Positions 9,893 to 55,516 are shown, numbered from the stretch's first letter. The stretch: DNA of 64,000 bases from Desulfuromonadales bacterium (GCA_050485365.1 JBJHBH010000002.1:1788-65787); one strand, 5' to 3'. Numbers and translations are program-made. The notes: generated from the sequence alone by a model not told the origin.

Positions 9893-12040
<2,148 letters not shown>

Positions 12041-12073
12041 GTAACCTCACAGGAAAAATTTTTTAAATTTACG

Positions 12074-12194: not shown

Positions 12195-12294
12195 ACGGCT
12201 GCCGAATCGTCGTTATGTCTAACTTCTCTGACCCCATAAAGGAGAGCGATCGGGCTCGGCCGATCCCCCGCTCCTCGATGTACCGAAGCCTTGC

Positions 12295-28543: not shown

Positions 28544-28619
28544 GCCCAGATAGCTCAGTCGGTAGAGCAGTGGACTGAAAATCCACGTGTCGCTGGTTCG
28601 ATTCCGGCTCTGGGCACCA
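28544..28619 (+). tRNA. tRNA-Phe (anticodon GAA), CCA encoded
   Basis: Manual cloverleaf. Acceptor 'gcccaga'/'tctgggc'. D stem 'gctc'/'gagc'. Anticodon stem 'gtgga'/'tccac' with loop 'ctGAAaa'. T arm 'gctgg-ttcgatt-ccggc'. 3' 'acca'. Confidence 0.95.
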
Positions 28620-35992: not shown

Positions 35993-36127
35993 GGTATTTA
36001 TTCGCCTTGTGGGGTCGCGGCTCACATGACAAGGTGTCTGGCGCCATGGACGGCGCCAGTCAAGCGGCCATGGACGGCGAAAAGCGTCCCTTGGCATGGG
36101 AGTTGGGACCCCATGCTGAACAGTTAC
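35993..36127 (+). repeat. Structured intergenic repeat, copy A (long subtype)
   Basis: 135 nt between convergent GGDEF genes. About 90% identical to copy B. Contains the internal 24-nt duplication 'atggacggcgccagtcaagcggcc'. Confidence 0.9.
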
Positions 36128-36139
36128 AAAATCCGAAGC

Positions 36140-39100
36140 TCACAGCCCCTCGTGACCCACCCGGTTGCGCCCCTCGTCTTTGGCGCGATAGAGGGCCCGG
36201 TCGGCGCGGGCGAGGGCTTCGACCCGCTCGTCCTCTTTCCTCAGCAGGGTCACTCCCACGCTCAGCGTCACCCGAATGTCGTCGGCGCCGCTTCGGGCGG
36301 GCGTCTGCGCGAAGGCGTCGCGCAGACGCTCGGCGAAGCGCAGCGCCCCCTCGCCGTCGGTGCCGGGGAGCAGAACGGCGAACTCTTCGCCGCCCAGCCT
36401 GCCGATGAGGTCGATCTTGCGCAGCATCTGCTGAGCGAGCCGGGCGAAGTGCTTCAGAACGTCGTCGCCGGCGGCGTGCCCGTAGGTGTCGTTGACGCGC
36501 TTGAAGCGGTCGAGATCGACCATGAGCAGGGCCACCGGCTTTCCGAGGCGCTTGAAGCGCGCCAGCTCGTGGTCCATACGCTCCAGAAAAAAGCGCCGGT
36601 TGGCGACCCCGGTGAGAGCGTCGGTAGTGGCGAGGCGCCGCAGCTCGGCCTCGTAGGCCTTGCGCTCGGTGAGGTCCTGAAAGACGACGACGGCGCCGTC
36701 GCGCTCTCCATCCTCCTCGACGGGGTTGACGACAAGCTGCACCGCAAAGCCGGTGCCGTCCTTGCGGATGAACCACTCCTCGGCGCGGCGCGAGAGCCCG
36801 TCCTCGATGGTGCGGAAGATCGGGCACTTGGCGGCGGGATAGTCACTGCCGTCGGGGCGGTGGTGGTGAAAGAGGGCGTGCGGGTCGGCATCGAGAACTT
36901 CGGCAAGGGTGAAGCCGAGCATCCGCAGCGCCGCGGGATTGACGAAGGTGAGCTTCCCCGTGCGGTCGACGCCGTAGATCCCCTCCCCCGCCGCCATGAG
37001 CAGCACCTTGTTGCGCCGCGAGAGGCGCTCGACTTCGGCCCGAGCGGCGCGCTCCTCGCCGACGAGCTCCCCCAGCCGCTCGTTGACCCGGAGCAGCGCC
37101 GATTCGGCGCGCTTTCGCGCGGCGGTGTCCCACGCGAGGTCGGCCAACAGCGAGACGGTTTCCACATCCCACGAGGTGTAGTTCTCGGTCTTGTTCCCCA
37201 CCCCGAGGATCGCCACGATCGACTCTCCCCGAAAGAGCGGAACGACGAGCTGTCGCTCGATGGGCACATGCCCTTCGGGGAGCCCCCGGCGGTGGAGCAA
37301 GGCGGCGTAGTCGTTGTGGATGATCGCCCGGCCCTCGCGCACGCAGTCGACCCAGACCCCGGCCTTCTCCACGTCGTAGTGCATTCCCGCCCCATCCATG
37401 GTGCAGGCCCTATGCAGCGTCGCGCTCGACCACATCTGCAGTTCCAGCGTCTGTTGGTCTTCGCGCAGAAAATGGAAAAAGCCGATGCGGCTCGCGGTCA
37501 GCCGCTCGGCCTGGTCGATCGTCTCGCGCAGAAACTCCTCCAGCGAATGGGTCAGGGCGTAGTCGATCAGGTGCAGGCGCGCCCGGGAGAGGGCGTCCGC
37601 TCGCCGCCGCTCGGTGATGTCCTGCAGGCTGAACTGGAGCAGCTGCCGTCCCTGATGCTGAAAAGCCATCAGGTGCACCTCGGCGTCCCAGATCTCTCCG
37701 TCGGGGCGTCGGTGACGCCACTCGAAACGGTGCGATCCCCCCGCGCGGGCAGCCTCGATGCGGCCCTGCGCCGCCTCGGCCGACGCCGTCCCGTCGGGCT
37801 GCAGCGGAGCCGAGACGTCCAGCGGACTCCGACCCACGAGCGCCTTCGCGTCCTCGACGCGATACAGCCGAAGCGCTGCGGCGTTGCAGTCGATGAAGCG
37901 GCCGCCCGCCGGGTCCATGACCACCATGGCGACATGCGATTCGGCGAAGAGGAGCCGGTTGTACGCCTCGCTCTCGCGCAGGGCCTTTTCGGCCTCAATG
38001 CGGGTGGTGATGTCGTGGATGATGGAGAAGAGGAGCGTTCCGTTTTCAGTCTCGATGGGCGAGGAATGGACCTCGACGGTGCGGACCTCGCCGTCGGCGA
38101 GGCGATGGGGAAAGATGAAGTAATTGCGCCTCTGCTCGAGGGCGTTTCGTCGCTCGGCGGCGATCTGCTCCTCACCGAGCATGTTGATCTCGGCGACGCT
38201 CATCGCGCGCAGGAGATCGGCCGGATAGCCGTAGAAGCGCGCGGCGGCGGCGTTGGCGTCGACGATCCTCCCGGAGGCGGGATCGACCAGGAGCATTACC
38301 GCATCGTGGCGGTGAAACAAGCCCCGGAAATGCTCTTCGCTTCGGCGAAGCTCGGCGGTCACGTCATCGATGCGGCGCTGCAGGCTGTTGCGGGTGGCGC
38401 CGTAGAGCCAAAGCAGAAGAAGCTGAGAAGCGACGTATCCGCCGACAAGCGCCGCCGCATCGACGCGGCGGTGACGCTCGTGGGCGGCGAAGGGCTCGGA
38501 ACGGTCGCGCCAGACGACGACCATACCGACAGGGGGGCGCGCCGGATCGCGTCCATGAAGGTAGTCGTGAAGGGGGAAGGTGGTCACATGCCAGCGCCGC
38601 CCGCCCCAGGCGGCCTTGAAAGAGCGGAGCGGCTCTTCGCCCAACGGCACGGATCCGCTCATCAGCCACGGCGTCGCCTCGGAGCGGGACGTCGATGCCA
38701 GATAGCTCCCCGTCTTCTCGATCAGGGGGCCGTTCAATCCGAGGTATTCCGCCCAGACGGTCTCCTCCACGACGCGGCGTTCGAGCAGGACGGCGACCCC
38801 GGCGTCGGCGAGGCGATCGAAGTACTCGACCTGCGAGCGAAGCGACATCCCCGCCTCCAGCACACCGATGCGTCCTCCCTGCGGGTCTTTGACGGGCACC
38901 ACCGCCCGCAGCCCCGAGAAGGCGCGGCCGATCTCGAAGCCGCTGCGGGGAATTCCGTCGGCGTTGACGTCCTCGATGACGGCACGCACCCCGTCGAGGC
39001 GGTCGCCGAAGCGCTCGGGGGCGTGCACCCGCAGAAACGACTTCGCGCCGGGTCCGAGGTGAAAATGGAGCTGCTGCGCGCCGAATTGCCGCTGCAGATC

Positions 39101-39430
39101 GCTCCAGCTCGGCCCCAGGTGCTCCAACAACTCGGCGCGCGCACGCGCCGCCCTCTCTCCACCCGGCCCCTCGGCCTCACCTTCCTTCCCGTCGAGAAAG
39201 GCGCGCCGGACCTTGGGGTCTGCGGCGACGAAGGAGGCGAGAACGTACATCTGGCGCTCTAGCTGAGCTTCGGCGATGCGAAAGAGGTCCTGTAGCTCGG
39301 CGGATTCGCGGTGGAGACGCCGCTCGAACTCCGCAGCGTCTCGGTGCCAGAAAAAGACGCCGATGCACAGGAAAAAGGCCGCCAGCAGGACGGAAGGGAA
39401 GAGAGTATTTCTCAGCGAGAATTTCTTCAT
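36140..39430 (-). CDS. Large multi-domain sensor diguanylate cyclase (periplasmic domain, PAS x3-4, GAF, GGDEF)
   Basis: Start placed at ATG 39430 (MKKFSLRNTLFPSVLLAAFFL; the GTG at 39475 is an alternative). PAS blocks, GAF-like block 'RIGFFHFLREDQQTLELQMWS', I-site 'RKID' and 'RLGGEEFAVLL'. Confidence 0.9.
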   Translation of the reverse strand: MKKFSLRNTLFPSVLLAAFFLCIGVFFWHRDAAEFERRLHRESAELQDLFRIAEAQLERQMYVLASFVAADPKVRRAFLDGKEGEAEGPGGERAARARAELLEHLGPSWSDLQRQFGAQQLHFHLGPGAKSFLRVHAPERFGDRLDGVRAVIEDVNADGIPRSGFEIGRAFSGLRAVVPVKDPQGGRIGVLEAGMSLRSQVEYFDRLADAGVAVLLERRVVEETVWAEYLGLNGPLIEKTGSYLASTSRSEATPWLMSGSVPLGEEPLRSFKAAWGGRRWHVTTFPLHDYLHGRDPARPPVGMVVVWRDRSEPFAAHERHRRVDAAALVGGYVASQLLLLWLYGATRNSLQRRIDDVTAELRRSEEHFRGLFHRHDAVMLLVDPASGRIVDANAAAARFYGYPADLLRAMSVAEINMLGEEQIAAERRNALEQRRNYFIFPHRLADGEVRTVEVHSSPIETENGTLLFSIIHDITTRIEAEKALRESEAYNRLLFAESHVAMVVMDPAGGRFIDCNAAALRLYRVEDAKALVGRSPLDVSAPLQPDGTASAEAAQGRIEAARAGGSHRFEWRHRRPDGEIWDAEVHLMAFQHQGRQLLQFSLQDITERRRADALSRARLHLIDYALTHSLEEFLRETIDQAERLTASRIGFFHFLREDQQTLELQMWSSATLHRACTMDGAGMHYDVEKAGVWVDCVREGRAIIHNDYAALLHRRGLPEGHVPIERQLVVPLFRGESIVAILGVGNKTENYTSWDVETVSLLADLAWDTAARKRAESALLRVNERLGELVGEERAARAEVERLSRRNKVLLMAAGEGIYGVDRTGKLTFVNPAALRMLGFTLAEVLDADPHALFHHHRPDGSDYPAAKCPIFRTIEDGLSRRAEEWFIRKDGTGFAVQLVVNPVEEDGERDGAVVVFQDLTERKAYEAELRRLATTDALTGVANRRFFLERMDHELARFKRLGKPVALLMVDLDRFKRVNDTYGHAAGDDVLKHFARLAQQMLRKIDLIGRLGGEEFAVLLPGTDGEGALRFAERLRDAFAQTPARSGADDIRVTLSVGVTLLRKEDERVEALARADRALYRAKDEGRNRVGHEGL

Positions 39431-39734
39431 ATCATGCGTCGCGGCGTAAAGGTGGGGTGTTGAGACGATTCTCACCCATACCGCCGCCGTTGTCTAGGAT
39501 TTCCGACCGCGCTCGCCAAAAGGATGAAACCGCGGCGCCGAAGGGACCGAAAAGCGGACCATCGGCCGGACAACTGCTTCGATCTTCGTCTGTTTTCGGT
39601 TGAAATGAGCCTTGGGGTGGGCCTATACTGTGGCGGTCCGATTGAATGAAAATGGAGGGCCGCTCCCCCCTCACGCTTCGCCGCGCAACAACGCGAAGGT
39701 CCCGTTTCATCCCCTTCACTCCCGATCAGGTATC

Positions 39735-40817
39735 ATGAAGACACCCGCTTCCGAAAAGACCTCCTTCAAATGGCTCCTCGGCGCCCTGGTGCTCGGCATC
39801 GTTCTGGGGGCCTGCTTCACCATCCTGTTGCGCGCGCCCTCTTCCTCGGCCCCCCTTTTCGCCGCCGAAGCGGTGTCGCCGAAGGTCGACCGGGCCCTGT
39901 CCGAAGGGCTGGAGCGCGCCAAGAGGCTCGCCGACCAGGGGAAAGCACCCGAGGCGGTGGAGCTGCTCGAATCGCTCATCGTCCGCTTCCCCAAGGCGCC
40001 CGAGCCGTACAACAATCTGGCCGCCGTTCTTGCCCTGCAGGGCGAGTTGGAGGCGGGGCGCGAGCTTCTTGAAAAAGCGCTGCGCACCCACGAGGGGTAC
40101 TCGGCCGCCTACGACAATTTGGGGATCATCTTCTCCGAGATTGCCCGCACCTCCTACGGCAAGGCCCTTCGCCTCGACATCCCCCCGAGCACGCCCGACC
40201 TCAAGGTCGTCACCGCCGCCCGCCCCGCTCCCGCTTCGGTGGCCTCGGACATCCTCAGGGACGAGCCCGAAAGCGCGCCGCCCCGCGAAGAGCCGGCGAA
40301 AGAGGTCCGCACCGCGGCTGCCCCCCCTGCGGCGGCGCAGCGGCCCGAGCCGCCCCCGGCGCAGCCCGCCGCTCCCCCGGCTCCGGCTCAGGCTCCCGCC
40401 GCCCCCTCTGCCCCCGCCCCGGCAGCGGCGGCACCGCAGGCGGCGCCGACCGCGCCTGCGAACGACCAGCGCGAGGCGGTTCTGCAGACGCTCCGGGAGT
40501 GGGCCGCCGCCTGGTCGGCCCGCGACGTGCCGCTCTATCTTTCGTACTACAGCGAGCACTTCCGCCCCGACGACGGCATGGACCGCGCCGCCTGGGAAGA
40601 GCTTCGCCATCAGAGGATCCGCCACCCCTCGCGCATCCGGGTGACCCTCAGCGACATCCAGCTCAGCTGGACCGGCCCCGATTCGGTGCAGGTCACGATG
40701 GTGCAGGACTACGACGCCGACACCTACAAAGGACGTTCGCGCAAGGCGATGAACCTGGTGAAGGAAGGGGGCGCCTGGCGCATCCTGACTGAGAACTCCC
40801 TCGGAACCGCACGGTGA
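39735..40817 (+). CDS. Membrane-anchored TPR protein with Pro/Ala-rich linker and C-terminal NTF2/SnoaL-like module
   Basis: Start at ATG 39735. N-terminal TM helix. TPR-like 'PEPYNNLAAVLALQGELEAGRELLEKALR'. C-terminal 'WAAAWSARDVPLYLSYYSEHF..AAWEELR'. Confidence 0.75.
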   Translation: MKTPASEKTSFKWLLGALVLGIVLGACFTILLRAPSSSAPLFAAEAVSPKVDRALSEGLERAKRLADQGKAPEAVELLESLIVRFPKAPEPYNNLAAVLALQGELEAGRELLEKALRTHEGYSAAYDNLGIIFSEIARTSYGKALRLDIPPSTPDLKVVTAARPAPASVASDILRDEPESAPPREEPAKEVRTAAAPPAAAQRPEPPPAQPAAPPAPAQAPAAPSAPAPAAAAPQAAPTAPANDQREAVLQTLREWAAAWSARDVPLYLSYYSEHFRPDDGMDRAAWEELRHQRIRHPSRIRVTLSDIQLSWTGPDSVQVTMVQDYDADTYKGRSRKAMNLVKEGGAWRILTENSLGTAR

Positions 40818-42163
40818 AGCGCCCGCACCTTCTTCTTTTGCTCGTGCTCGTCGCCGGGATTGTCACCGTCACGGCCGCGCAGGTGAGTGCGCTGTGGACG
40901 AACCCCGCGCCGTCCCCTGCGCCCTCGCCGCTCAAGGAGGAGACGCTGCAGCAACGGTTCGTCGAGGATCTGCCGACCCTCGAGAGCGATCTTCAAAAGC
41001 GGGTCTCGGCGCGCCTGAAGGCCGACCCCGACGACCTCGAAGCGGCCCTTTTGCAGGGGCTGCTCTACTTCCGGGCCGGCGATTTCGACCGCGCCCTCAC
41101 CAAGCTCGACCGCATCACCCGCAAGGCGCCGCGCTTCCACCTGGCGCACCTCATCCGCGGCGACCTCGCCCTGGTCCACATCAACCACATCAGCGACATC
41201 GGCCGCAGCCGCCTGCTGAGCGACATGCCCGGCGCCGACGAGGAGCGCTTGGAGCAGCTGCGCACCGAGGCCGAGGCACGCCTTCGCGGCTATCTCACCA
41301 TCATCGACGGGCGCCGCATCCCCGGCAGCATCATCCAACTCGCCCCCGGCATCAGCCACGTCCTGCTCGTCGACAAGGCCCAGCACCGCCTCTACGTCTT
41401 CGAAAACGTCGGTCCCGGTCTCCCCCCGGCCCTGGTCGCCGATTTCTACACGGTCATCGGACGCATCCCCGGAAACAAGCTCGTGCGCGGCGACCAGAAG
41501 ACCCCCGAGGGGATCTACTACATCACCGAGCGCATCCCCGGCAGTCGGCTTCCGCGCCGCTACGGCCCGGCGGCCTTCCCGATGAACTACCCCAACGAGC
41601 TCGACCGACGTTTTCGAAAGACCGGCGACGGCATCTGGCTGCACGGCACCGACACCGACTTCTACAGCCGCCCTCCCCTCGACAGCGACGGCTGCGTCGT
41701 TCTCGCTAACGACGATCTGAAGCGGATCGAGCGCTTCATCAAGCCGGGGGTCACCCCCATCGTCGTGGCGGACGCGCTGGAGTGGATCACCCATGAGCAG
41801 TGGCACGATCGGCGCGAGTCGGTGCTGCGCGACATCGAACAGTGGCGCCGTGACTGGGAGCAGGGGCCGGTGGAGGCGTATCTCAGCCACTACGCCAACG
41901 ACTTCGTCGGCGACGGGCTCGAACTGGCGGCGTGGAGCGAACGAAAGCGGCAGGTGGCCCGGGGGAAGGAGTACCAGAAGATCGTTCTGAGCGACCTGAC
42001 CCTTCTGGCCTACCCCAAGGCGGCGGCGGACGGTCGGCGCAAAGTGGTCGCCGAATTTCGCCAGGACTACCGTTCGAACAACTTCAACAGCGTCATGGAC
42101 AAGCGGCTCTACCTGGTCCAGGACGAGCAGGCGTGGCGGATCTGGCACGAGGGTCGCCAGTAA
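40814..42163 (+). CDS. L,D-transpeptidase (YkuD) family protein with N-terminal TPR-like region and C-terminal NTF2-like module
   Basis: GTG start in a GTGA overlap with the upstream stop. Catalytic 'IWLHGTD....SDGCVVL'. C-terminal 'WRRDWEQGPVEAYLSHYANDF..AAWSERKR'. Confidence 0.85.
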   Translation: MKRPHLLLLLVLVAGIVTVTAAQVSALWTNPAPSPAPSPLKEETLQQRFVEDLPTLESDLQKRVSARLKADPDDLEAALLQGLLYFRAGDFDRALTKLDRITRKAPRFHLAHLIRGDLALVHINHISDIGRSRLLSDMPGADEERLEQLRTEAEARLRGYLTIIDGRRIPGSIIQLAPGISHVLLVDKAQHRLYVFENVGPGLPPALVADFYTVIGRIPGNKLVRGDQKTPEGIYYITERIPGSRLPRRYGPAAFPMNYPNELDRRFRKTGDGIWLHGTDTDFYSRPPLDSDGCVVLANDDLKRIERFIKPGVTPIVVADALEWITHEQWHDRRESVLRDIEQWRRDWEQGPVEAYLSHYANDFVGDGLELAAWSERKRQVARGKEYQKIVLSDLTLLAYPKAAADGRRKVVAEFRQDYRSNNFNSVMDKRLYLVQDEQAWRIWHEGRQ

Positions 42164-42216
42164 GGCGCAAGGCAGACAGGGACACGATCGCTTCCGGTGG
42201 AGACGGGCAGACGCAA

Positions 42217-42963
42217 ATGAAGAGGCCGACCTTGTTTTTGGGGGTGTTCCCGCTCTTTTTAGCGACGCTCGTCTGTGCGGACGAGTTCGCCGCCCCACCC
42301 GGCACCTTCTACGACGCCGACACCGCCCTTCTCTGGCAGATCGGCGAAAACGGCCGGATGCCGTGGTCGGAGGCGGCGCGCCACTGCCGAAGCCTCTTTG
42401 CGGACGAAGGGGGCGAATGGCGCCTTCCGCGCAAGGACGAGCTCTTGTCGCAGCCGCCTCGCCATCTCTTCCCCGACGCCGCGGCCGGCGCCTACTGGAG
42501 CGCCACCCCGCAGAACGGGCGTGTCTTGGGGGTTGCCTTCGACAGCGGCCTCCCCTTCGCCTTCGGGGGGAGCGACCCGGCCCTTTATGTGCGCTGCGTC
42601 GCCGACCCCCCTCCCCCTTTTGCGGCCCCACTCCAAACCCTTCACCGCTGGGCGCAGGCCTGGTCGCGTCAGGACGTCGAGGCGTACCTCTCCTTCTACA
42701 GCGACGACTTCGATCCCGGCAGCGGCCTCTCGCAGGCGGCGTGGAAGGAGCGCCGACGAAGCGCCCTCGGGCGCCCCGAGTGGATCGAGGTGCGGATCGA
42801 TGATCTTCGGGCCTCACGGACCGACGCCGGGGTGCGCATCGCCTTCGTCCAGGCCTACCGCTCCGACCTCTTCAGCGACCGCGTCCGCAAGGCGATCGAC
42901 TTCGTCCCCGAACGCGGGGGGTGGGCCATCGCCGCCGAAGAGACATTCGAGATTCTCCCCTGA
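42217..42963 (+). CDS. Secreted DUF1566(Lcl C-terminal)-like protein with C-terminal NTF2-like module
   Basis: Start at ATG 42217 with a signal peptide. 'LLWQ...MPWSEAARHCRSL....WRLPRKDELL...YWSAT' resembles DUF1566. C-terminal 'WAQAWSRQDVEAYLSFYSDDF..AAWKERRR'. Confidence 0.7.
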   Translation: MKRPTLFLGVFPLFLATLVCADEFAAPPGTFYDADTALLWQIGENGRMPWSEAARHCRSLFADEGGEWRLPRKDELLSQPPRHLFPDAAAGAYWSATPQNGRVLGVAFDSGLPFAFGGSDPALYVRCVADPPPPFAAPLQTLHRWAQAWSRQDVEAYLSFYSDDFDPGSGLSQAAWKERRRSALGRPEWIEVRIDDLRASRTDAGVRIAFVQAYRSDLFSDRVRKAIDFVPERGGWAIAAEETFEILP

Positions 42964-42967
42964 CGAC

Positions 42968-42996
42968 GAAAGGGCGGCCTGGTTGGCCGCCCTTTC
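42968..42996. terminator. 12-bp perfect hairpin between convergent operons (likely bidirectional terminator)
   Basis: 'gaaagggcggcc-tggtt-ggccgccctttc'; weak U-tract. Confidence 0.6.
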
Positions 42997-43038
42997 GCAT
43001 TCATTTCGTTCTCTGTTCGTCGTTGTGCGTCGGCTTTT

Positions 43039-43839
43039 TCAGCCCCGGTCCCATTCGGCCAGCCGCTCCCGGGCGGTCTTCGCCTCATCGGACATGGGGA
43101 ACGTTTCGATGAGGCGGTTGAGGATCGCCCGGCCGTTGCGTTGATCCCCCAGGGTATTGAAGGTGATCCCCTGCTTGAGCAGGGCGGCTGCGGCCTTGGG
43201 GTGATCGCTGTGCTTCTGGATCACGTCCTGGAACTGCAGGATGGCGTTCTCGTACCGCTTCTCGCCGTAATACGCCTCGCCGATCCAGTACATGGCATTG
43301 ACGGCCTGGGCTCCGGTGGGGTTGGCCCGAAGGTACGACTCGAGCGCCTCCCTCCCCTGGACGAACTGGTTGGCGCGGATCAGCTCGACGCCGCGCTCAT
43401 AGGCGCTTTGCGGCGGCGCTCCGGCCTGGGAGGCGGCGCCGCCCCCCTCGCCGCCCGGCCTGCGCTCCAGGGCCGCGATCCTGTTTTCGAGCGCCCCGAT
43501 TTTCAGGGCGAGGTCATCGCGGACCAGGGCGAGCTCGGCGCGCACTTCGCTCCCCTCGCGACGGCTGTCCTCCATGCGCCCGCTCATCGACTGCAGATCG
43601 ACCCGCAGGGCGTCCATCGATGCCTGCAGGTCGGCCTGACTGCGCCCCATGGCGTCGACGCGCCCCTGCATCTCGCCGGCCTGATCCGAATGGCGTAACG
43701 AAACGGTGGTGCGTTCCACCTCCGCCAGGCGGCGCTTCATTTCGTTCATGTCGCGCTCCATGCGCAACTGATCCTGAGTCGTCAGGCATCCGGTCAGCAT
43801 CACCCCTGCCGTCAGCACAACGCATCCTTTACGCCACAT
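43039..43839 (-). CDS. cpoB: Tol-Pal system protein CpoB/YbgF (coiled coil + TPR)
   Basis: Start at ATG 43839. Lipobox/signal 'LTGC'. Coiled-coil half, then 'YWIGEAYYGEKRYENAILQFQDVIQKHSDHPKAAAALLKQG'. Last gene of the tol-pal order. Confidence 0.85.
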   Translation of the reverse strand: MWRKGCVVLTAGVMLTGCLTTQDQLRMERDMNEMKRRLAEVERTTVSLRHSDQAGEMQGRVDAMGRSQADLQASMDALRVDLQSMSGRMEDSRREGSEVRAELALVRDDLALKIGALENRIAALERRPGGEGGGAASQAGAPPQSAYERGVELIRANQFVQGREALESYLRANPTGAQAVNAMYWIGEAYYGEKRYENAILQFQDVIQKHSDHPKAAAALLKQGITFNTLGDQRNGRAILNRLIETFPMSDEAKTARERLAEWDRG

Positions 43840-43907
43840 CTTCACGCCTTGGATCCTCCGATGGAAAGAGGGGGCCGCACCCTGCGGCGCGGCCCCTTCG
43901 GTTGTCG

Positions 43908-44468
43908 TCAAGGGCTGATTCTGTTGAACTCGGCGCGGCGGTTCTGCGCCCAGGCGCTCTCGCTGGAGGCGCGCACCAGCGGCATCTCTTCACCGTAGGA
44001 GATGATGGTGAGGCGGTTGCCGTTGATGCCGAGGGAGATGAGATAGTCGCGCGCGGCGCGGGCACGGCGCTCGCCCAGCGCGAGGTTGTACTCGTCGGAG
44101 CCGCGCTCGTCGGTGTGCCCTTCGATACGCACCCGCACACGCGGGTTTTCCTTGAGGTACTCGGCGTTGCGGGCGAGGATCTCGCGGGCCTCGGCGCTCA
44201 GGGTGTGCTGGTCGAACCCGAAGTGGATGCGCTGCAGACCTTCGCCGGTGGCGTCGGCCATGGGGAGGAGGCGGTCGCGGGCGACCTCGTCGGAGACGGC
44301 CTGCTCGTCGACGCCTCGGGGAACCTCACGCTCGACGGAAGGCGCCTCGACGACGCGCTCCTGCGCAATGGGGGCCTCGGCGGTGGGAGCCGGCTTCTTG
44401 GCGCACCCCGTGACGAACATCGCCGCCAGAGCGACCATCAAAATCCAATACACGTTCATTTTTTTCAT
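43908..44468 (-). CDS. pal: Peptidoglycan-associated lipoprotein Pal (OmpA-like)
   Basis: Start at ATG 44468 after 'aaaggagaag'. Lipobox 'FVTGC'. 'IHFGFDQHTLS', 'IEGHTDERGSDEYNLALGERRA', 'SYGEE.P'. Confidence 0.9.
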   Translation of the reverse strand: MKKMNVYWILMVALAAMFVTGCAKKPAPTAEAPIAQERVVEAPSVEREVPRGVDEQAVSDEVARDRLLPMADATGEGLQRIHFGFDQHTLSAEAREILARNAEYLKENPRVRVRIEGHTDERGSDEYNLALGERRARAARDYLISLGINGNRLTIISYGEEMPLVRASSESAWAQNRRAEFNRISP

Positions 44469-44611
44469 TGCCGTACTTCTCCTTTGAAATGCTCTTGTTC
44501 CTTTATGAGACCATGCCACCCCGGCCGCCTCGGAACGAACCCGGTGCGCTGGGAAACCTAGCCAACGATTATAGCGAAAGGCGTATTAAAAACAACGAAA
44601 ACCGCGTGCGA

Positions 44612-45910
44612 TCACCACCGTGCGGACCATGCGGGGTGGCTCGCCTCGACCCCTTGGGGGGAAATGCGCCGCGCCCCCGTGCCGTCGGCGCGCATGACGT
44701 AGATCCCCTTCTTGCCCGAGACGTCCGATGAGTAGACGATGAAGCGGCCGTCGGGGCTCCAGCGGGGATGCTCCTTGTTGCCGGGGCCGAAGGTGAGGCG
44801 GCGCTCGTCGGTGCCGTCGGGGCGAATGGTGTAGATGTCGAGACGCCCCTCCTCCATGCGCGTGAAGGCGATGCGCTCCCCCTTGGGGTGCCAGGTGGGG
44901 GTGACGTTGTAGCGTCCGGCGTTGGTGAGGCGCCGCACCGCGCCGGAGACGACGTCGAGGATGAAGATGTGGGGGTTGCCCTGGCGGTCGGAGACGAAGG
45001 CGATCTCGTCGCTGCGGGGGCTCCAGCTCGGGTCGACGTCGATGGCCCAGTTGTTGGTCAGCCGCTTGTTGATGGCGCCGTCGGTGCCGATGAGGTAGAG
45101 CTCGGCCTGGCCGTCCTTGGAGAGAGTCAGAGCGATCTCGCGGCCGTCGGGGCGGAATCGTCCCGCGATGTTGAGCCCGGGATGGCGCGACAGGCGGGCC
45201 TCGGCGCCGCTGTTGAGCTCCTTGCGGTACAGATCAGGGTTCCCTTCGCGGTACGAGGTGAAGATGACCTCCTTGCCGACGGGGGAGAAGTCGGGGTTGA
45301 GGACGATGGTGCGATGGTCGGTGAGGCGCACCGACCCGTGCCCGTCGACCTCCATGAGGTAGAGCTCCTTGTGCCCGGTTCGGTCCGAGATGTAGGCGAT
45401 GCGCGAATTGAAGGGCCCCTCTTCGCCGGTGAGGCCGGCGAGGATCTGATCGGAGAAGCGGTGGGCGATGCTGCGCACGTCGGCGACGCTGGCGGTGTAT
45501 CGCCGCCCGGTGAGCAGGCGCCGCGAGGTCACGTCGAAGAGGCGCGCCTCGACGATGAGGGTGTCGCCCCGCACCGCGTACCCCCCCTTGATGAGGGCCT
45601 GGGCGCCGAGCATGCGCCACTGGCCGAAGTCGACATCGACGCTGGCGAGCCCGAGGCGCCGGGCGTCGGAGAGGAACGCCGCCGGATCGACGAAGGAGAA
45701 GATCCCGGTCAGGTCGAGATTGGCGTTGAGGACGCGTTCGATTTCGGCAGCGAGCTCCGGCGAAGCCCCCTCCTCCATCGGCAAAAAGCGGGTGACGGCC
45801 AGCGGGATCGTCTGCTGTCCCGGCGCACGGATCTCGATCTGCGCGGCCGCAGGGGTGGCGAGGGCGAACAGTAAAACGAAGAGAACCGCCAGTGCAGTGC
45901 GTAGTGACAT
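44612..45910 (-). CDS. tolB: Tol-Pal system beta-propeller protein TolB
   Basis: Signal peptide, N-terminal TolB domain, and repeated 'P.WSPDG..I.F.S.R.G...I' propeller blades. Confidence 0.95.
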   Translation of the reverse strand: MSLRTALAVLFVLLFALATPAAAQIEIRAPGQQTIPLAVTRFLPMEEGASPELAAEIERVLNANLDLTGIFSFVDPAAFLSDARRLGLASVDVDFGQWRMLGAQALIKGGYAVRGDTLIVEARLFDVTSRRLLTGRRYTASVADVRSIAHRFSDQILAGLTGEEGPFNSRIAYISDRTGHKELYLMEVDGHGSVRLTDHRTIVLNPDFSPVGKEVIFTSYREGNPDLYRKELNSGAEARLSRHPGLNIAGRFRPDGREIALTLSKDGQAELYLIGTDGAINKRLTNNWAIDVDPSWSPRSDEIAFVSDRQGNPHIFILDVVSGAVRRLTNAGRYNVTPTWHPKGERIAFTRMEEGRLDIYTIRPDGTDERRLTFGPGNKEHPRWSPDGRFIVYSSDVSGKKGIYVMRADGTGARRISPQGVEASHPAWSARW

Positions 45911-45916
45911 CGTCGT

Positions 45917-46834
45917 CTAGTCCAGAAGGTCCTTGAGGTTGAATTCCACATCGATCTCCAGGCGGCGCTCCGGCCTGAAGGGGAGTTGACGCGCGCCGAG
46001 AATGGCCCGGCGCACCGAATCGTCGAAGACGACCTCCCGCGACTGCTCGGTGAATGTGTAGTCGAGGAGCGTCCCTTGCGCATCGTAGATGATGCGCACC
46101 TTGGCCCGCAGGTCGCGCCGACCTCCCACCTGATAACCCGAGAGGTTCCAGTTCTCCTTCAGATAGGCCTGGATCCAGGTGCGCTGGTCGACGCCGGCCT
46201 GTGTCCCGGTGCCGGTCTCGATCCCCAGCGGGATGTTGGAGCCGCGGGTGTCGGCGGCGGCCAGGGCGGCGAGCCTCTCTCTGAGCTCCTCCCTCTCGCG
46301 CTGGCGGCGCATGCGCTCGATGGCGTCGCTGACGGCTGCCTCGTCGGCGGGAGGGGCCGTCGCCTGGGCGCGGGGGGGCGGCTCGGCCGGTGCCGGACGC
46401 GGCGCCGGAGGGGGAGCAGGGGCCGGTTCGGGCTTCGGCGCCGGTTTTGGTTCAGGCTTCGGTTCCGGCCGCGGCGCAGGTTCCGGCTTCGGCTCGGGGG
46501 CGGGAACGCTCGGCGCGGGAGGAGGAGCCGGTGCCGGTTCGGGGCGCGGCGCCGGTGGAGGCGGCGGGGCCGGGCGCGGCGCGGGACGAGCGGGCGCCGC
46601 GGCAGCGGGACGCGGTTCGCGGCTGCCGTCGGGACGCCCCGCCTGGGGGTCTGCCACCGGGAGCATGGAAAGATCGATCTCGATGACCTGCACCAGCTGA
46701 CGGTGGCTCGTGGTGAAGAACGCCCCCGAAAAAAGGGCCGCCACCGCCAGATGCAGCACGAAGGAGATCAGGAGCATGCGCCCCAGGCCCGTATCGGGGA
46801 GGGGGCCGCTGCGCTTGGAAGTGTTGGTGTCCAC
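45917..46834 (-). CDS. tolA: TolA-like protein (TM anchor, Pro-rich spacer, TonB_C-type C-terminal domain)
   Basis: N-terminal TM 'MLLISFVLHLAVAALF'. Spacer 'PEPKPEPAPRPEPKPEPKPAPKPEP'. Position between tolR and tolB. Confidence 0.8.
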   Translation of the reverse strand: MDTNTSKRSGPLPDTGLGRMLLISFVLHLAVAALFSGAFFTTSHRQLVQVIEIDLSMLPVADPQAGRPDGSREPRPAAAAPARPAPRPAPPPPPAPRPEPAPAPPPAPSVPAPEPKPEPAPRPEPKPEPKPAPKPEPAPAPPPAPRPAPAEPPPRAQATAPPADEAAVSDAIERMRRQREREELRERLAALAAADTRGSNIPLGIETGTGTQAGVDQRTWIQAYLKENWNLSGYQVGGRRDLRAKVRIIYDAQGTLLDYTFTEQSREVVFDDSVRRAILGARQLPFRPERRLEIDVEFNLKDLLD

Positions 46835-46850
46835 TCGACGGATCCGGAGC

Positions 46851-47273
<423 letters not shown>

Positions 47274-47280
47274 CGCCTCT

Positions 47281-47949
47281 TCAGCCCCTGCGCGCCGTGC
47301 GCTCGACGATGTTGAGGAATTCCTGGCTGAAGTTGTCCATCTCCCCCGTCAGGATGTTCACCTTGTTGATGAAGTGGTTGTATCCGATGACTGCGGGGAT
47401 CGCGGCCACCAGCCCGATGGCGGTGGCCAGCAGGGCCTCGGAGATGCCGGGGGCCACGACGGCGAGCGAGGCGCTTCCGGTCTCGCCGATCCCCATGAAA
47501 GAGCCCATGATCCCCCAGACGGTGCCGAAGAGCCCGATGAAGGGGGCCGCCGACCCGGTGGAGGCGAGAAAGGTCAGGAATTTCTCCAGGCGCTGAATCT
47601 CGCTGGTGGTGGCGCGGCGAAGGGCGCGGGCGACGTTCTCGACGCGGCCCAGGTCGGTGGAGATCTCGCCGCCTCCCCCCTCGGGGCGCTGGCGCCCCTT
47701 GAGCAACTCGTGAAAGCCTTCGCGAAACAGCACCGTCAGCGGCGAATGGGGGTAGTCCTTGAGACCCTGGCCGATGACGTCGAAGCGCTTCTTGGCCCAG
47801 AAGAATTCGAGAAAGCGCTCGGAGTCGCGGGTCGCCCGGCGAATGACGCGCATTTTGTAGAAGATGATGGCCCAGGACATGACGGACAGGTAGACGAGAA
47901 CGAGCATGACCAGCTGAACGACCGGTCCTGCGTTGAGAACGAGCTCCAA
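47281..47949 (-). CDS. tolQ: TolQ (MotA/TolQ/ExbB proton channel)
   Basis: 3-TM pattern. 'LASTGSAAPFIGLFGTVWGIM', 'GISEALLATAIGLVAAIPAVIGYN'. Confidence 0.9.
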   Translation of the reverse strand: MELVLNAGPVVQLVMLVLVYLSVMSWAIIFYKMRVIRRATRDSERFLEFFWAKKRFDVIGQGLKDYPHSPLTVLFREGFHELLKGRQRPEGGGGEISTDLGRVENVARALRRATTSEIQRLEKFLTFLASTGSAAPFIGLFGTVWGIMGSFMGIGETGSASLAVVAPGISEALLATAIGLVAAIPAVIGYNHFINKVNILTGEMDNFSQEFLNIVERTARRG

Positions 47950-48104: not shown

Positions 48105-48716
48105 TCAGTTGGAACCTGAGCTTCCCTGCTCGGACTCGATTTGGAGGCGGGCGCGGCGGTAGAGCTCGACCTGGGCGAGCTTCTCGGGGTGTCCGTCGGC
48201 GGCCCAGGCGTCGATTTCGAGCAGTTCCACCAGTAAAGGGAAGCGATCGTCGCGGATGAAACGCCACTGGCGGCGCGACAATGAGCGAAGCTCGCCTACC
48301 CGCCAGGAGAGGGCGAACATGTGATGGCGGATGAGCCAGAGGATGTCATCTTTGGTCGCCGGATCCATCCCCAGGCGCTCCAGAATCTCCTCGGCGAGGC
48401 GCTCCCCTTCGCGGTCGTGCCCGAAGGCGCGCACCCGGCCGTCGATCCTTCGGGTCGTCATCGCCTTGCCGATGTCGTGCAGCAGCGCCGCCCAGGCAAG
48501 GCGCCGATCGGCCGACGAGGGGAGGAGGCGCACGGCGAGCAGGGTGTGGACGAAGGCATCGCCCTCCGGATGGTGATCGGGGGGCTGGGGGACCCCCTGC
48601 AGGCGGTAGACTTCCGGCAGAAGGCGCCGAAGACGCTCGTCGCTGCGAAAGCGCTCCTGGCGGTCCTTCGGCTCGGCAAGCCGAAGGATCTCTTCAATGT
48701 AGTGCAGGTCATTCAT
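48105..48716 (-). CDS. Stand-alone HD-domain phosphohydrolase (resembles the HD half of bacterial CCA-adding enzymes)
   Basis: 'HHPEGDAFVHTL', 'LHDIGK', 'GHDREG'; 203 aa. Confidence 0.7.
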   Translation of the reverse strand: MNDLHYIEEILRLAEPKDRQERFRSDERLRRLLPEVYRLQGVPQPPDHHPEGDAFVHTLLAVRLLPSSADRRLAWAALLHDIGKAMTTRRIDGRVRAFGHDREGERLAEEILERLGMDPATKDDILWLIRHHMFALSWRVGELRSLSRRQWRFIRDDRFPLLVELLEIDAWAADGHPEKLAQVELYRRARLQIESEQGSSGSN

Positions 48717-50839: not shown

Positions 50840-52066
50840 CTACCCCACGAACAGCATCCCCGCGATGGCGGCGCTCAGCAGGTTGGCGAGAGTCGCCGCT
50901 AATAGCGCCCTCAACCCGAGGTGCGCCACCTCGCTTCGGCGCTCGGGGACGAGCTCGCCGATGGTGCCGATCTGGATGGCGATGGAGGAGAAGTTGGCAA
51001 AGCCGGTCAGGGCGAAGCAGGTGAGCATGAACCCCTTGGGGGAGAGGGTCGCCTCGGAGATGGCGCTGAAGGCGACGACCTCGTTGAAGGCCGTCTTGGT
51101 GCCGAGCAGGTGGGAGAAGGCCGCCACGTCGTGGGACGGGACCCCCACGACCCAGGCCGCCGGGGAGAAGGCGACCCGAAGAAGCGTCTTCAGATCCAAA
51201 TGCCCCTGCGTGACGGCGCCGAGGACCCCGTCCAGCAGGTGGATGAGGGAGATGAAGGCCAGCAGCATCACCGCCACCCCGACCACCGCCCTCCACCCCT
51301 CCATCGCCCCGCGGGCCACGGCGTCGAGGACGTTGATCCCGTGCTCGGCCTTTTCGGTCTCCGGGCTCTCGACAAGAGCACCGGGAGACGTCTCGGGGAT
51401 GAGGATCTTGGCGAAGACGATCGCGGCGGGCGCTGCCATGATGCTGGCGGCCAGCACATACTCCAGGCGCGCCCCCATCCCTGCGTAGGCGATCAGCAAC
51501 CCCGAGCCGACCGTCGCCATCCCCCCCGTCATGGTGAGAAAGAGCTGCGAGCGGCTCATGCTTCGCAGATACGGCGCGATGGTGAGAGGCGCCTGGGTCT
51601 GCCCGAGAAAGACGTTGCTCGCCGTCACCACCGCCTCGACGCTGCCGATGCCGAAGACGCGGCCGAAAAGCCCCGCCATCGCGCGAACGATGCGCTGCAT
51701 GATTCCGTAATAGTAGAGGACCTTGATCAGCGCAGCGAAAAAGACGATCGGCACCAGCGCCTGCAGGATGAAGGCGTAGGGCCACCCCTCGAACCCGTCG
51801 ACCTGAGCGAAGCCGGTGTAGAGCGGACCGAACACGAAGCGCGTCCCCTCCGAGGCGTATTGTAAAATCTTGTGCAGCCCGGCGCTGATCACCTCGAAAA
51901 AGGTGCGCCCCGGCGCGGTGCGCAAAACAAGAAAGGCGAACAGGAAGATCAGCCCCAGCCCGTAACCGACCGGCTTCCACCGGATCGCCCGACGGTCACT
52001 CGAACACAGAACCGCCAGCGCAACCAGCACCGCAATCCCCAATACCCCTCGAAGAATCTGTTCCAT
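50840..52066 (-). CDS. nupC: NupC/NupG-type concentrative nucleoside transporter
   Basis: 408 aa polytopic membrane protein. N-terminal 'RGVLGIAVLVALA.LCS.DRRAIRW' and C-terminal 'GFANFSSIAIQIG' are typical of CNT/NupC. Confidence 0.8.
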   Translation of the reverse strand: MEQILRGVLGIAVLVALAVLCSSDRRAIRWKPVGYGLGLIFLFAFLVLRTAPGRTFFEVISAGLHKILQYASEGTRFVFGPLYTGFAQVDGFEGWPYAFILQALVPIVFFAALIKVLYYYGIMQRIVRAMAGLFGRVFGIGSVEAVVTASNVFLGQTQAPLTIAPYLRSMSRSQLFLTMTGGMATVGSGLLIAYAGMGARLEYVLAASIMAAPAAIVFAKILIPETSPGALVESPETEKAEHGINVLDAVARGAMEGWRAVVGVAVMLLAFISLIHLLDGVLGAVTQGHLDLKTLLRVAFSPAAWVVGVPSHDVAAFSHLLGTKTAFNEVVAFSAISEATLSPKGFMLTCFALTGFANFSSIAIQIGTIGELVPERRSEVAHLGLRALLAATLANLLSAAIAGMLFVG

Positions 52067-52100
52067 TGCAACGAATCCACTTCATGCCGCAGTGCCGGCG

Positions 52101-52134
52101 AAAAAAACGCCGCGCTCTTGTGTGGAGCGCGGCG
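52101..52134 (-). terminator. Rho-independent terminator closing the low-G+C island operon
   Basis: Minus strand 'cgccgcgctc-cacacaa-gagcgcggcg' followed by T7. Confidence 0.8.
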
Positions 52135-52224
52135 ACAGTGTGCACCAACTCAGTAAAATGGGCAAGCTCAGGATCCTACCCCTCCTAAAATCATGGCGGG
52201 GACGAAATGTAGTTGTCGTTATCG

Positions 52225-53853
52225 CTAGCGAGGGATTTGTGGCAAGGATCCGACATCGCTCAAGGTGCCAGGATTCATCTCCCCGCCTGAAACCGTAACT
52301 TCTATAGGGCCGAATATCATCGCTTCGCTGGCAAGATATAGGTTGTAGTGACCGTCATGGACGTCCTGTAGGTCGATTGCGAAACGCGCGCCTTCAACCC
52401 CTCCATAGACGACAATATAAGCTGAGCTCAGAGGATCCCCTTTCTTTTTGAGCACAAGGTGATCGATTTCGGTCCCCTCTGCGCCATTGACGACTCCATT
52501 GAACTCTCTTTGAGCCAAGTAATTTCTCACCCAGGCGTGGTAGTTCGCCTCAAACTCCGCCACGGTCAGGGGGTTCCCGTTGCGCGTGAGATGCGCAGCG
52601 AAAGCGTCGGGAAAACTTGCTTCGAGGCTCATTTCAACCAGAAGGTTGATAAACTGCTGAAGCGTGTTTCCCGCGCCGCCTTCTTCCGTGGGCGCCAGAA
52701 GATAGCGCAATGCAAGGGCATAGTACGGATAGTATAGGCCGTCATCAGGAATGCTCAAGAAGTGTTTGGCGGAGATCGGGTTGGCATTGTTTTCGCCAAA
52801 GAAGAGATCGTACTCGATCGTACTCTCGGCCCCGGGGGCGTTTTTCGACGTAAGGACAGCGAGCCCCTCGCTGAACCACCGCTCGACACGGTACGGGGAA
52901 AACCCCTGTGCCGTTCCGTCAAGATTTAGCTGGATGGTGTGCGTCAGCTCGTGCTTGATGAGTTTGCGGTAAAAACGATCATCGTTGTCGGTCAGATAGC
53001 TCATGTCGTGCAGTCCAGTGTCCAGCGCCGTCACTTCAATGCCATCCACAAAACCGGTCCCACCAGAATTGGGAGTTTGCCTGTTGCAATGCACGATCCA
53101 TCGTTTCTCGCCAAGGCCGAGTTCTTCGGCGGTGAGTCCAAAGAACTCCAGCAATTCCGCGAGTGCCTCTTCACTGTAGGTGGCGACCTTTACAAGCACA
53201 TCGTCCGAGCTGGGGCTGGAGGCGTGAGTTGAGACAATGAAATATTGTGTTACGAAAACACGATCCGCCTTATCTGCAGGAAGAGTGAGCCCTAGTACCG
53301 AAGCAGAAGCAAATTGTCCGATGACCGAATCAGAGGGTGGGTTATTTTCGACAGGTTGAGTCGGCAATGGCCTGTCCCAGTACGTGTTATAGAACTCAAT
53401 GGCTTGACTCAGGCCTGTTTCGGCATTGAAAAACCAACCTTCATCATATTCACCATCAAAAACGATTTTTGAATTTTCTTCCTCAATTACAATTCTTATG
53501 CTGTGAAATGTGGTCAAATTGACATTGTTGACCATGAAGCTTGACCGCAGTCTTCCATCCGAGAGAATCTCCCAAGTACCTGTTAAATTTTCTTCTGGAA
53601 CACCGGTTTTAATATGAGCACCTCTCGTAGCCTGACCGCCGGGATGAAAAGTCATTGAGGCGTAGCCATCGTCGGCGCCAATGTATACTGTTTTCCCTAC
53701 AATCATCTCTTCGGTAAAAGGAATTGGATCGCTTGGCGGAGAAGTAGGCGCTCCAGGATTAAGGTTTTCAGGGCTAACATCCCCTCCCCCACCGCAGGCT
53801 GCCAACAGTATTGCCAATAAACCTAGGCATAGTTTTTTTCTAAATTTAAACAT
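52225..53853 (-). CDS. Lipoprotein with gluzincin-like zinc-peptidase motif
   Basis: Start at ATG 53853 after 'ggaaggg'. Lipobox 'LLAAC'. 'LIKHELTHTIQ' (HExxH) with Glu 18 residues later, and 'RWFSEGLAV'. 542 aa. Confidence 0.65.
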   Translation of the reverse strand: MFKFRKKLCLGLLAILLAACGGGGDVSPENLNPGAPTSPPSDPIPFTEEMIVGKTVYIGADDGYASMTFHPGGQATRGAHIKTGVPEENLTGTWEILSDGRLRSSFMVNNVNLTTFHSIRIVIEEENSKIVFDGEYDEGWFFNAETGLSQAIEFYNTYWDRPLPTQPVENNPPSDSVIGQFASASVLGLTLPADKADRVFVTQYFIVSTHASSPSSDDVLVKVATYSEEALAELLEFFGLTAEELGLGEKRWIVHCNRQTPNSGGTGFVDGIEVTALDTGLHDMSYLTDNDDRFYRKLIKHELTHTIQLNLDGTAQGFSPYRVERWFSEGLAVLTSKNAPGAESTIEYDLFFGENNANPISAKHFLSIPDDGLYYPYYALALRYLLAPTEEGGAGNTLQQFINLLVEMSLEASFPDAFAAHLTRNGNPLTVAEFEANYHAWVRNYLAQREFNGVVNGAEGTEIDHLVLKKKGDPLSSAYIVVYGGVEGARFAIDLQDVHDGHYNLYLASEAMIFGPIEVTVSGGEMNPGTLSDVGSLPQIPR

Positions 53854-53884
53854 CGAAACATCACCCTTCCTTTGATATGAATGC

Positions 53885-54301
53885 TTACATTGAAGATATG
53901 TACCATTTTTTATCATTCTTTATAAACTTAAACCCCTTGCTTTCTTTTAATATTTCGCCAGACTCAAATGCTCCATACTCTTCTTCTAGCACTCCCATCA
54001 CGACTGAGATTCCCAACAAATCATCATACCCCTTTGCCTCCTCATACATTTGATGACCGATTTCTTGGAGACCGATTTTGAATTTAATTTGATATTCTAC
54101 TTCGGCAACATAACTATTGTCATTTACGTTTTTGCCACTTGTTTTCTTCACATTAACTACATCGTAAATCAAGTCGCCACCATCTGCCAGAAGGGCAGCT
54201 CGAACTTGAGTTTCAACCTCTGACTTTTTTGGCTCATTCGAACAGGCAGCCATCAAGAGTGTCATTATAATTATTAAGATAAGATTTAGCTTTATCTTCA
54301 C
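53885..54301 (-). CDS. Small lipoprotein, unknown function
   Basis: Lipobox 'LLMAAC'. 138 aa. Very AT-rich codon usage compared with the rest of the window. Confidence 0.6.
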   Translation of the reverse strand: MKIKLNLILIIIMTLLMAACSNEPKKSEVETQVRAALLADGGDLIYDVVNVKKTSGKNVNDNSYVAEVEYQIKFKIGLQEIGHQMYEEAKGYDDLLGISVVMGVLEEEYGAFESGEILKESKGFKFIKNDKKWYISSM

Positions 54302-54328
54302 AATCTTTACCTTTCGTCTCAGTAACCT

Positions 54329-54646: not shown

Positions 54647-54677
54647 CTATCCTTTATTGGTCAGATGGCATCTGAAG

Positions 54678-55442: not shown

Positions 55443-55516
55443 TTTCTTTTCCTTTCGTGTTTGAAGGTTTGCGATCGTTTCGTTCTTACCCACGTTTTTC
55501 CCTCCTGTCTCCCGCC

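Follow-up and report, generated by a model that had tools for sequence, protein, structure and literature searches.

A Csd6-type NTF2-like module shared by three consecutive envelope genes of a Desulfuromonadales bacterium may hold their products at the cell wall

How curved or helical a cell becomes is set by L,D-carboxypeptidases of the Csd6/Pgp2/Bd1075 type, and for the positioning of these enzymes the NTF2 domain is the sole handle known. Csd6 of Helicobacter pylori (PDB entry 4XZZ) and Pgp2 of Campylobacter jejuni (6XJ6) are helical-shape L,D-carboxypeptidases and the founders of the Pfam family Cds6_C, and Bd1075 of Bdellovibrio bacteriovorus (7O21) is an L,D-carboxypeptidase whose C-terminal NTF2 domain serves in targeting. 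The NTF2 pocket of Pgp2 lies ~40 Å from the active site; peptidoglycan fragments bind in this pocket as seen by nuclear magnetic resonance (NMR), the K307A variant is no longer pulled down with sacculi, and substitutions at Y233, F242, K257, K307 or E324 abolish shape complementation (PMC8038945). In Bd1075 the NTF2 domain is needed for targeting the enzyme to the cell's convex face, and the Y274A substitution, at the base of the pocket, leads to mislocalisation (PMC8938487). The gene for Bd1075 has been described as a monocistronic one that lacks a TPR-NTF2 partner, and no genes neighbouring csd6 or pgp2 have been reported to re-use the NTF2 module. Here we describe a different arrangement in a 64,000-nucleotide stretch of DNA from a Desulfuromonadales bacterium (GCA_050485365.1, JBJHBH010000002.1:1788-65787; hereafter the window), in which three consecutive genes, which we call g1, g2 and g3, encode envelope proteins that end in the same Csd6-type module, with g2, the relative of Bd1075, lying inside an operon.

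An alignment of the C-terminal ~115 residues of the g1, g2 and g3 products needs one small indel and is invariant in 23 columns, and in pairwise BLASTP comparisons the modules of g1 and g3 are 42% identical (E = 6e-28), those of g1 and g2 32% (E = 1e-16) and those of g3 and g2 33% (E = 7e-15). All three match Pfam PF24125 ("Cds6_C: Cds6 C-terminal NTF2-like domain") at scores above its curated gathering cut-off of 27 bits (Table 1), and they also give weak matches to SnoaL_3 and DUF4440. Searching the six-frame translation of the whole window with a profile of the three modules retrieved just these three copies (E = 1e-53 to 7e-62), the next-best match having an E-value of 0.15. In protein databases, a word-indexed search with the same profile gave 6 short, uninformative matches and was replaced by an exhaustive search of 1.84 billion cluster representatives, of which 7,215 matched at E <= 1e-3 and 5,161 at E <= 1e-10. 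Given this rarity of the family, three copies in adjacent genes are far beyond what chance would produce. An earlier note, made by a model from the sequence, had proposed that the three C-termini share one NTF2/SnoaL-like module, and BLASTP, PF24125, profile alignment and a structure model of g3 agree on this; the strings it quoted and the 'W.I..E' ending are both present, and the family is indeed NTF2-like, closest to Csd6, Pgp2 and Bd1075. It had overlooked that the module is an already curated Pfam family. The Pfam name 'Cds6_C' itself seems to have arisen by swapping two letters of Csd6 (cell shape determinant 6, HP0518), and a recent preprint spells the same protein both ways.

To place the module structurally, a profile was built from 31 g1-, g2- and g3-type modules and run against the PDB. 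Its matches were the NTF2 domains of Bd1075 (7O21, E = 7.9e-19), Pgp2 (6XJ6, E = 1.2e-15, the K307A mutant entry 6XJ7 also being matched) and Csd6 (4XZZ, E = 3.1e-15), with an uncharacterised SnoaL-like protein as a weak fifth match (E = 8.8e-4). Taken by itself, the g2 module can also be aligned with the corresponding domains of Csd6, Pgp2 and Bd1075. In an AlphaFold model of g3 the module has a predicted local distance difference test score (pLDDT) of 77-92 and the element order H-H-H-E-E-E-E, which is the NTF2 layout of three helices against a curved sheet of four strands. The top six PDB matches of this model in Foldseek all come from entries of Bd1075, Pgp2 and Csd6 (7o21, 6xj7, 4xzz and 6xj6), with a root-mean-square deviation of 2.1-2.5 Å over 107-117 columns, and generic NTF2-like proteins rank after them. 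The NTF2 fold is placed by this model for g3 and by sequence profile for g1 and g2.

The residues that matter in the characterised pockets were mapped through the printed alignments, with the numbering fixed by 6XJ7 (Pgp2 K307A) and by H141 and C156 of Bd1075; module positions are given here in the numbering of the g1 module. Pgp2 K307 and E324 correspond to K96 and E112, and Bd1075 Y274 to Y85, all three being invariant in the 31 modules. Pgp2 Y233 and F242 correspond to Y27 and F35, which are kept in at least 90% of the 31 modules, and Pgp2 K257 corresponds to position 50, where each window module has Arg or Lys. All six residues supported by mutagenesis are kept in the modules of g1, g2 and g3. 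This conserved pocket, together with the binding data for Pgp2 (PMC8038945) and the localisation data for Bd1075 (PMC8938487), makes a common targeting or ligand-binding role, as the earlier note had offered, the best-supported role for the module.

The protein encoded by g2 consists of a signal peptide, a TPR-like N-terminal domain of ~130 residues (TPR_16, E = 4.4e-10), a YkuD catalytic domain and the Cds6_C module. Bd1075 is its best solved relative, aligning in one piece across the catalytic and NTF2 domains (7o21, E = 1.1e-44), and Csd6 (4xzz, E = 1.2e-26) and Pgp2 (6xj6, E = 1.5e-25) share the same two-domain core at 21-24% identity; the closest match among species representatives is 51% identical. 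Judged by its sequence, g2 is a member of the Csd6/Pgp2/Bd1075 family of YkuD proteins, orthologous to L,D-carboxypeptidases. No three-helix N-terminal dimerisation domain of the Csd6 type was found in g2: where Csd6 and Pgp2 have a short helical dimerisation region g2 has TPR_16, and the PDB alignments begin at the catalytic domain. As Bd1075 also does without that domain, and indeed has no N-terminal domain, it does not define the wider family. A C-terminal extension carrying W303 is specific to Bd1075 and is absent here.

The catalytic signature of g2 points to trimming. Its His, Gly and Cys align to H141, A142 and C156 of Bd1075, preserving the triad of His, small residue and Cys, and the Val two positions after the Cys (GCVVL) aligns to Bd1075 V158. 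This position is occupied by Arg in most L,D-transpeptidases (PMC8938487), by Ala in Csd6, Pgp2 and YafK, and by Val in Bd1075; in 74 motif-bearing orthologues of g2 it is nearly always Val or Ala, and Arg in none. Since g2 has Val where L,D-transpeptidases have Arg, it is probably an L,D-carboxypeptidase rather than the cross-linking L,D-transpeptidase that had been suggested for it, and a search of g2 against NCBIfam gave no significant L,D-transpeptidase equivalog.

The g1 protein begins with a short basic stretch, followed by a hydrophobic segment of 20 residues, which may be a signal anchor or a long signal peptide, and continues with a TPR region, a spacer and the Cds6_C module. Three TPR families score above their Pfam cut-offs (TPR_14, 29.9 bits against 23.5; TPR_10, 28.5 against 27.5; TPR_19, 26.7 against 25), and the spacer is 103 residues long, 58 of them Ala or Pro. 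In its orthologues, most of which have classical cleavable signal peptides, a low-complexity spacer precedes the module in all cases. The stop codon of g1 and the start codon of g2 share the bases GTGA (40814-40817), an overlap that the earlier note had correctly recorded. Genes called independently on a Logan contig from the same organism (L001) have identical g1 and g2 products and an identical start of g3, which is truncated there by the contig end. All three products had been called exported or membrane-anchored, and each does open with a hydrophobic N-terminal segment.

The pairing of g1 and g2 extends far beyond this genome. Running the module profile over 185,579 species genomes (with a query biased towards g1) yielded 80 loci from four phyla (Gamma- and Betaproteobacteria, Desulfuromonadales, Fibrobacteres and Acidobacteriota), and in 69 of the 80 a g1-type gene (TPR, spacer, module) is immediately followed by a g2-type gene. 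The distance between the g1 stop and the g2 start is -4 to +10 nucleotides in about 50 of 60 loci. The modules of g1-type and g2-type proteins form separate clades, modules of one type having a mean BLOSUM distance of ~0.6 and those of different types 0.80, so the pairing is ancient and did not arise by recent duplication. Recent duplication or gene conversion as the origin of the similarity between modules was rejected on the same ground, as both clades are old and run across phyla. In 32 of the pair loci, mostly betaproteobacterial (L010:7447-12896 and 31 alike), the pair lies between a divergent glnS and downstream genes for a cyclophilin and a calcineurin-like metallophosphoesterase, housekeeping surroundings that bear no relation to those in the window. 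A larger conserved operon was considered and rejected, since these recurrent neighbours are absent from the window.

Modules of this family also occur in other company. Partner domains, taken from 75 of the best 150 matches, were TPR (~20), BamE (5), YkuD (5) and the outer-membrane efflux domain OEP (4), all of them envelope types, as well as AAA_22 (4), and many proteins carry two to five modules in tandem. Some TPR proteins have four or five Cds6_C modules in a row, with linkers in between (P0007, 1087 residues; L036:8216-10792), and many YkuD proteins have two or three. Tandem copies and envelope partners, together with the mostly basic character of the modules, are what one would expect if the domain binds a polymer. 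At the position of g1, two contigs encode instead a ~700-residue fusion of a protein kinase, TPR and module as defined by Pfam (L030:8219-10327 and L042:8228-10360), and a third a ~735-residue protein assigned to the same fusion by sequence similarity (L018:8120-10327). On another contig (L084:2126-4191) a kinase-TPR ORF (open reading frame) is followed by a separate, overlapping ORF that bears the module, and on L089 there are four consecutive module-bearing genes, the fourth of which, after g3, encodes a Pkinase-TPR-module protein (10316-12478; Pfam). The kinases in these Desulfuromonadales-type loci are Hanks-type Ser/Thr kinases, and their presence at the position of g1 suggests a sensor reading of g1.

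The third gene, g3, encodes a signal peptide, an Lcl_C domain (formerly DUF1566), a short Pro-rich linker and the Cds6_C module. The Lcl_C match (PF07603, residues 29-128, E = 8.9e-12) scores 45.8 bits against a cut-off of 34.9, and the domain is retained in four invariant-rich homologues of g3. In Legionella Lcl the corresponding C-terminal domain is C-type-lectin-like and implicated in carbohydrate recognition and/or trimerisation (PMC11162425). Of the earlier description of g3 as a DUF1566-like, lectin-like protein, the family assignment stood; for the lectin-like fold, the model of this part of g3 has a pLDDT below 50. Unlike Lcl, g3 has no collagen repeats, and a periplasmic or wall-tethered protein is more probable than a surface adhesin. 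Genes of the g3 type are rare: outside the window they were found in a Desulfuromonadales metagenome-assembled genome (MAG; L004) and on the metagenome contigs L082-L084 and L089, and in all five of these contigs the gene directly follows a g2-type gene. Their modules are nearest to g1-type modules, and the nearest relatives of the trio are Desulfuromonadales-type MAGs; g3 is a lineage-restricted addition to the pair. Co-localisation in other genomes, the lack of which the earlier note had named as a refutation, was seen for the g1-g2 pair and, in the five other contigs, for the complete trio.

Taken together, the reading that we consider rather likely is that g1, g2 and g3 form one operon for three envelope proteins sharing a Csd6-type wall-binding module, with g2 as a trimming enzyme, g1 as its partner and g3 as an accessory protein. 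The module would be a portable domain with a peptidoglycan-binding pocket that holds or targets each protein at the sacculus. There, g2 would trim tetrapeptide stems to tripeptides and would form no 3-3 cross-links. The product of g1, whose gene is translationally coupled to g2, would be non-enzymatic, with a membrane-proximal TPR domain joined through the ~100-residue Pro/Ala-rich spacer to a wall-binding module of its own, and would probably position or regulate g2 or sense the wall. As a lineage-specific accessory, g3 would add a C-type-lectin-like Lcl_C domain on the same wall anchor. The three proteins would meet through their common polymer, with no binding between modules.

Several observations weigh against parts of this reading. 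All functional assignments are drawn from homologues, with 21-25% identity between the modules and the solved NTF2 domains, and for the pocket of Csd6 another ligand, pseudaminic acid, has been proposed through docking only (PMC4599014). Modules of the family are mostly basic, with a median isoelectric point (pI) of 9.6 for the g1 type and 8.8 for the g2 type, as is the NTF2 domain of Csd6 (pI 9.4; PMC4599014), but those of the window are less so, with pI values of 7.1 (g1), 8.2 (g2) and 5.4 (g3). The g1- and g3-type modules do not have the 4-6-residue 'YP' insertion of g2-type modules, which by its position in the alignment may be the flexible beta9-beta10 lip of Pgp2, and the ligand specificity may therefore differ among the three. 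The Val/Ala marker is a correlate of carboxypeptidase activity and no proven determinant, the role proposed for g1 is inferred in its entirety, and residues 1-133 of the g3 model, which contain the Lcl_C part, have a pLDDT below 50 and come from a four-sequence alignment.

Alternatives to a peptidoglycan anchor concern first of all what the module binds. The modules could bind or process a ligand other than peptidoglycan, such as a nonulosonic or other acidic sugar, a lipid, or a component of the outer membrane or exopolysaccharide, or could even be enzymes (SnoaL-like, or a 'pseudaminidase'). The proposal of pseudaminic acid for Csd6, whose mutant has hyper-glycosylated flagellin, the weak SnoaL_3 and DUF4440 matches, the lectin-like domain on g3, and the invariant Tyr, Lys, Glu and Gln, which could in principle be catalytic, all fit such a role. 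Yet the direct evidence, from sacculus pull-down and NMR of Pgp2, is for peptidoglycan only, pseudaminidase activity has never been shown, and to be fused to an L,D-carboxypeptidase and repeated in tandem is more usual for a wall-binding module than for an enzyme; we regard a different ligand as unlikely. The module might otherwise be a homo- or hetero-oligomerisation domain that assembles g1, g2 and g3 into one complex, a role that the earlier note had listed. NTF2-like folds can oligomerise, CaMKII hub domains being among the weaker fold matches (E about 1e-4), and the three genes are co-transcribed in our reading, with g1 and g2 translationally coupled. Among the solved relatives, Csd6 dimerises through its N-terminal domain, Pgp2 is a monomer in solution and Bd1075 is a monomer, so none of them oligomerises via the NTF2 domain; the conserved residues line the ligand pocket, and up to five modules per chain better match multivalent ligand binding. 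Assembly through the module is accordingly improbable in our judgement, and we prefer tethering by a shared ligand, which also suits the tandem arrays and kinase fusions, both of which fit a ligand-binding sensor or anchor.

For g2, the competing view is a true L,D-transpeptidase that forms 3-3 cross-links or attaches lipoproteins, in which case the operon would strengthen the wall and not trim it. The YkuD domain with its catalytic His and Cys is compatible with this, and L,D-transpeptidases have the same fold; the nearest characterised relatives, however, are all carboxypeptidase-only, the usual Arg is replaced in g2 and nearly all its orthologues, and the equivalog search was negative, which leaves a transpeptidase quite unlikely. 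A further proposal concerns the neighbouring tol-pal genes, on which the g1-g2-g3 operon converges as the earlier note had stated (YbgF/CpoB, Pal, TolB, TolR and TolQ exceed the cut-offs of their NCBIfam equivalogs, and TolA is assigned by position alone). The operon could be functionally coupled to Tol-Pal, for instance when the septal wall is processed or the outer membrane constricts, and lying next to cpoB could reflect that. Apart from g3 being immediately convergent with cpoB in the window, a convergent tol-pal lies within a few kb in three betaproteobacterial loci, a Gallionella MAG (L035), Paucimonas (L046) and an Oxalobacteraceae MAG (L051), which is above random expectation. These are nevertheless a small minority, as tol-pal is found within 10 kb of the pair in just 3 of 69 pair loci; it was seen near the trio in none of the 5 other trio contigs, an unrelated HDOD-domain gene stands between the pair and tol-pal in L046, and 32 pair loci have the glnS, cyclophilin and metallophosphoesterase neighbours instead. 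In the window itself the convergent orientation and the strong terminator, a 13-bp GC-rich hairpin between the two operons, argue against co-transcription. The link to tol-pal that had been drawn is not supported: tol-pal is a separate transcription unit and no part of the system, and we consider functional coupling very improbable.

A wider interpretation, which we put forward tentatively and hold to be less probable than the wall-anchored operon itself, is that the module serves generally to read out what state the cell wall is in. On this view the widespread g1-g2 pair would be a dedicated sensor or adaptor with its editor, the TPR-NTF2 protein recognising a particular state of stem peptides or glycan and controlling where or when the L,D-carboxypeptidase trims. 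In Desulfuromonadales-type bacteria this ectodomain would be coupled to a Hanks kinase in the cytoplasm, as a functional counterpart of the PASTA kinases for Gram-negative bacteria, and g3 would be a lectin-like effector. The layout of the kinase-TPR-NTF2 fusions does resemble that of PASTA kinases. Among known adaptors of wall enzymes, NlpI, the N-domain of LpoA and CpoB are, like g1, non-enzymatic envelope TPR proteins tied genetically to a peptidoglycan hydrolase. No significant sequence match was found between g1 or g2 and NlpI, LpoA or CpoB (NlpI reaching E about 0.7, for the N-domain of g2), and g1 differs from all three in having a wall-binding module of its own and a long Pro/Ala spacer.

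The remaining features of the locus are collected in Table 1. A sigma-70-like promoter candidate stands upstream of g1, and the hairpin between g3 and cpoB is likely a bidirectional terminator that ends the operon. A scan of the 64-kb window against Rfam gave no match in the g1-g2-g3 region.

Table 1. Coordinates of the genes, modules and neighbouring features of the g1-g2-g3 locus, counted from the first base of the window
Feature	Position	Strand	Product or residues	Basis and remarks
g1	39735..40817	+	360 residues	ORF and start call
g1 NTF2-like module	40479..40796	+	residues 249-354	PF24125, E 6.3e-19, 68.8 bits
g2	40814..42163	+	449 residues	GTG start
g2 YkuD catalytic domain	41357..41767	+	residues 182-318	PF03734, E 4e-19; WLHG...DGCVVL
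g2 NTF2-like module	41822..42151	+	residues 337-446	PF24125, E 8.4e-27, 94.1 bits
g3	42217..42963	+	248 residues	
g3 NTF2-like module	42631..42942	+	residues 139-242	PF24125, E 2.2e-15, 57.3 bits
Sigma-70-like promoter candidate (TTGAAA, 18 nt, TATACT)	39600..39629	+		upstream of g1; consensus scan 10/12; pattern match only
GC-rich hairpin (13-bp stem, 10 G-C)	42967..42997			between convergent g3 and cpoB; terminator scan
cpoB(ybgF)-pal-tolB-tolA-tolR-tolQ operon	43039..47949	-		convergent with g3; context

Some other features of the window were recorded. A PAS-GGDEF diguanylate cyclase gene (36140-39475, minus strand) is divergent from g1, and a 1078-residue ORF antisense to it (36026-39262, plus strand) is a high-GC artefact. 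Just past tolQ, a 203-residue stand-alone HD-domain protein (48105-48716, minus strand) resembles the C-terminal half of CCA-adding enzymes. The region 52000-56000 has a GC content of 0.50-0.51, as against about 0.65 elsewhere, and looks like a small horizontally acquired island; among its minus-strand ORFs are two that match nothing in Pfam (52225-53916 and 53885-54301), one for a DUF4282 protein (54329-54646) and one for a TraT-like lipoprotein (54678-55604; PF05818, E = 6e-40). One tRNA gene (28544-28616, plus strand) is the sole Rfam match in the window.

The module, its NTF2 fold, its likely ligand and the enzyme family of g2 are already known, and the g1-g2 pair, the addition of g3 and the kinase fusions appear to be unstudied; in the literature, nothing was found on the partner that combines TPR and module, on the trio or on the kinase fusions, which is weak evidence given the incomplete coverage. 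For the window alone the results are mostly clarifying, in that the shared C-terminus belongs to a known module family, g2 probably trims, and the adjacency to tol-pal is incidental. More broadly, the locus adds to the shape-determining carboxypeptidases the same NTF2 handle on non-enzymatic partners, in a conserved, translationally coupled operon found across several phyla, and one lineage has this handle fused to a Ser/Thr kinase. As the carriers of the pair include the culturable Paucimonas lemoignei DSM 7445 and Salinisphaera sp. PC39, this gives a testable route to the targeting or regulation of wall-editing enzymes. Like LysM, SPOR, PG_binding_1, OmpA-like and PASTA domains, Cds6_C is a small domain that occurs alone, in tandem arrays of up to five and fused to TPR, YkuD, BamE, OEP, AAA_22 and Ser/Thr kinases; its fold, an NTF2-like cone with one pocket, is unrelated to theirs, and its wall binding has been shown for a single member, Pgp2. 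These results suggest that Cds6_C is a general and under-appreciated wall-binding module, comparable to LysM or SPOR.

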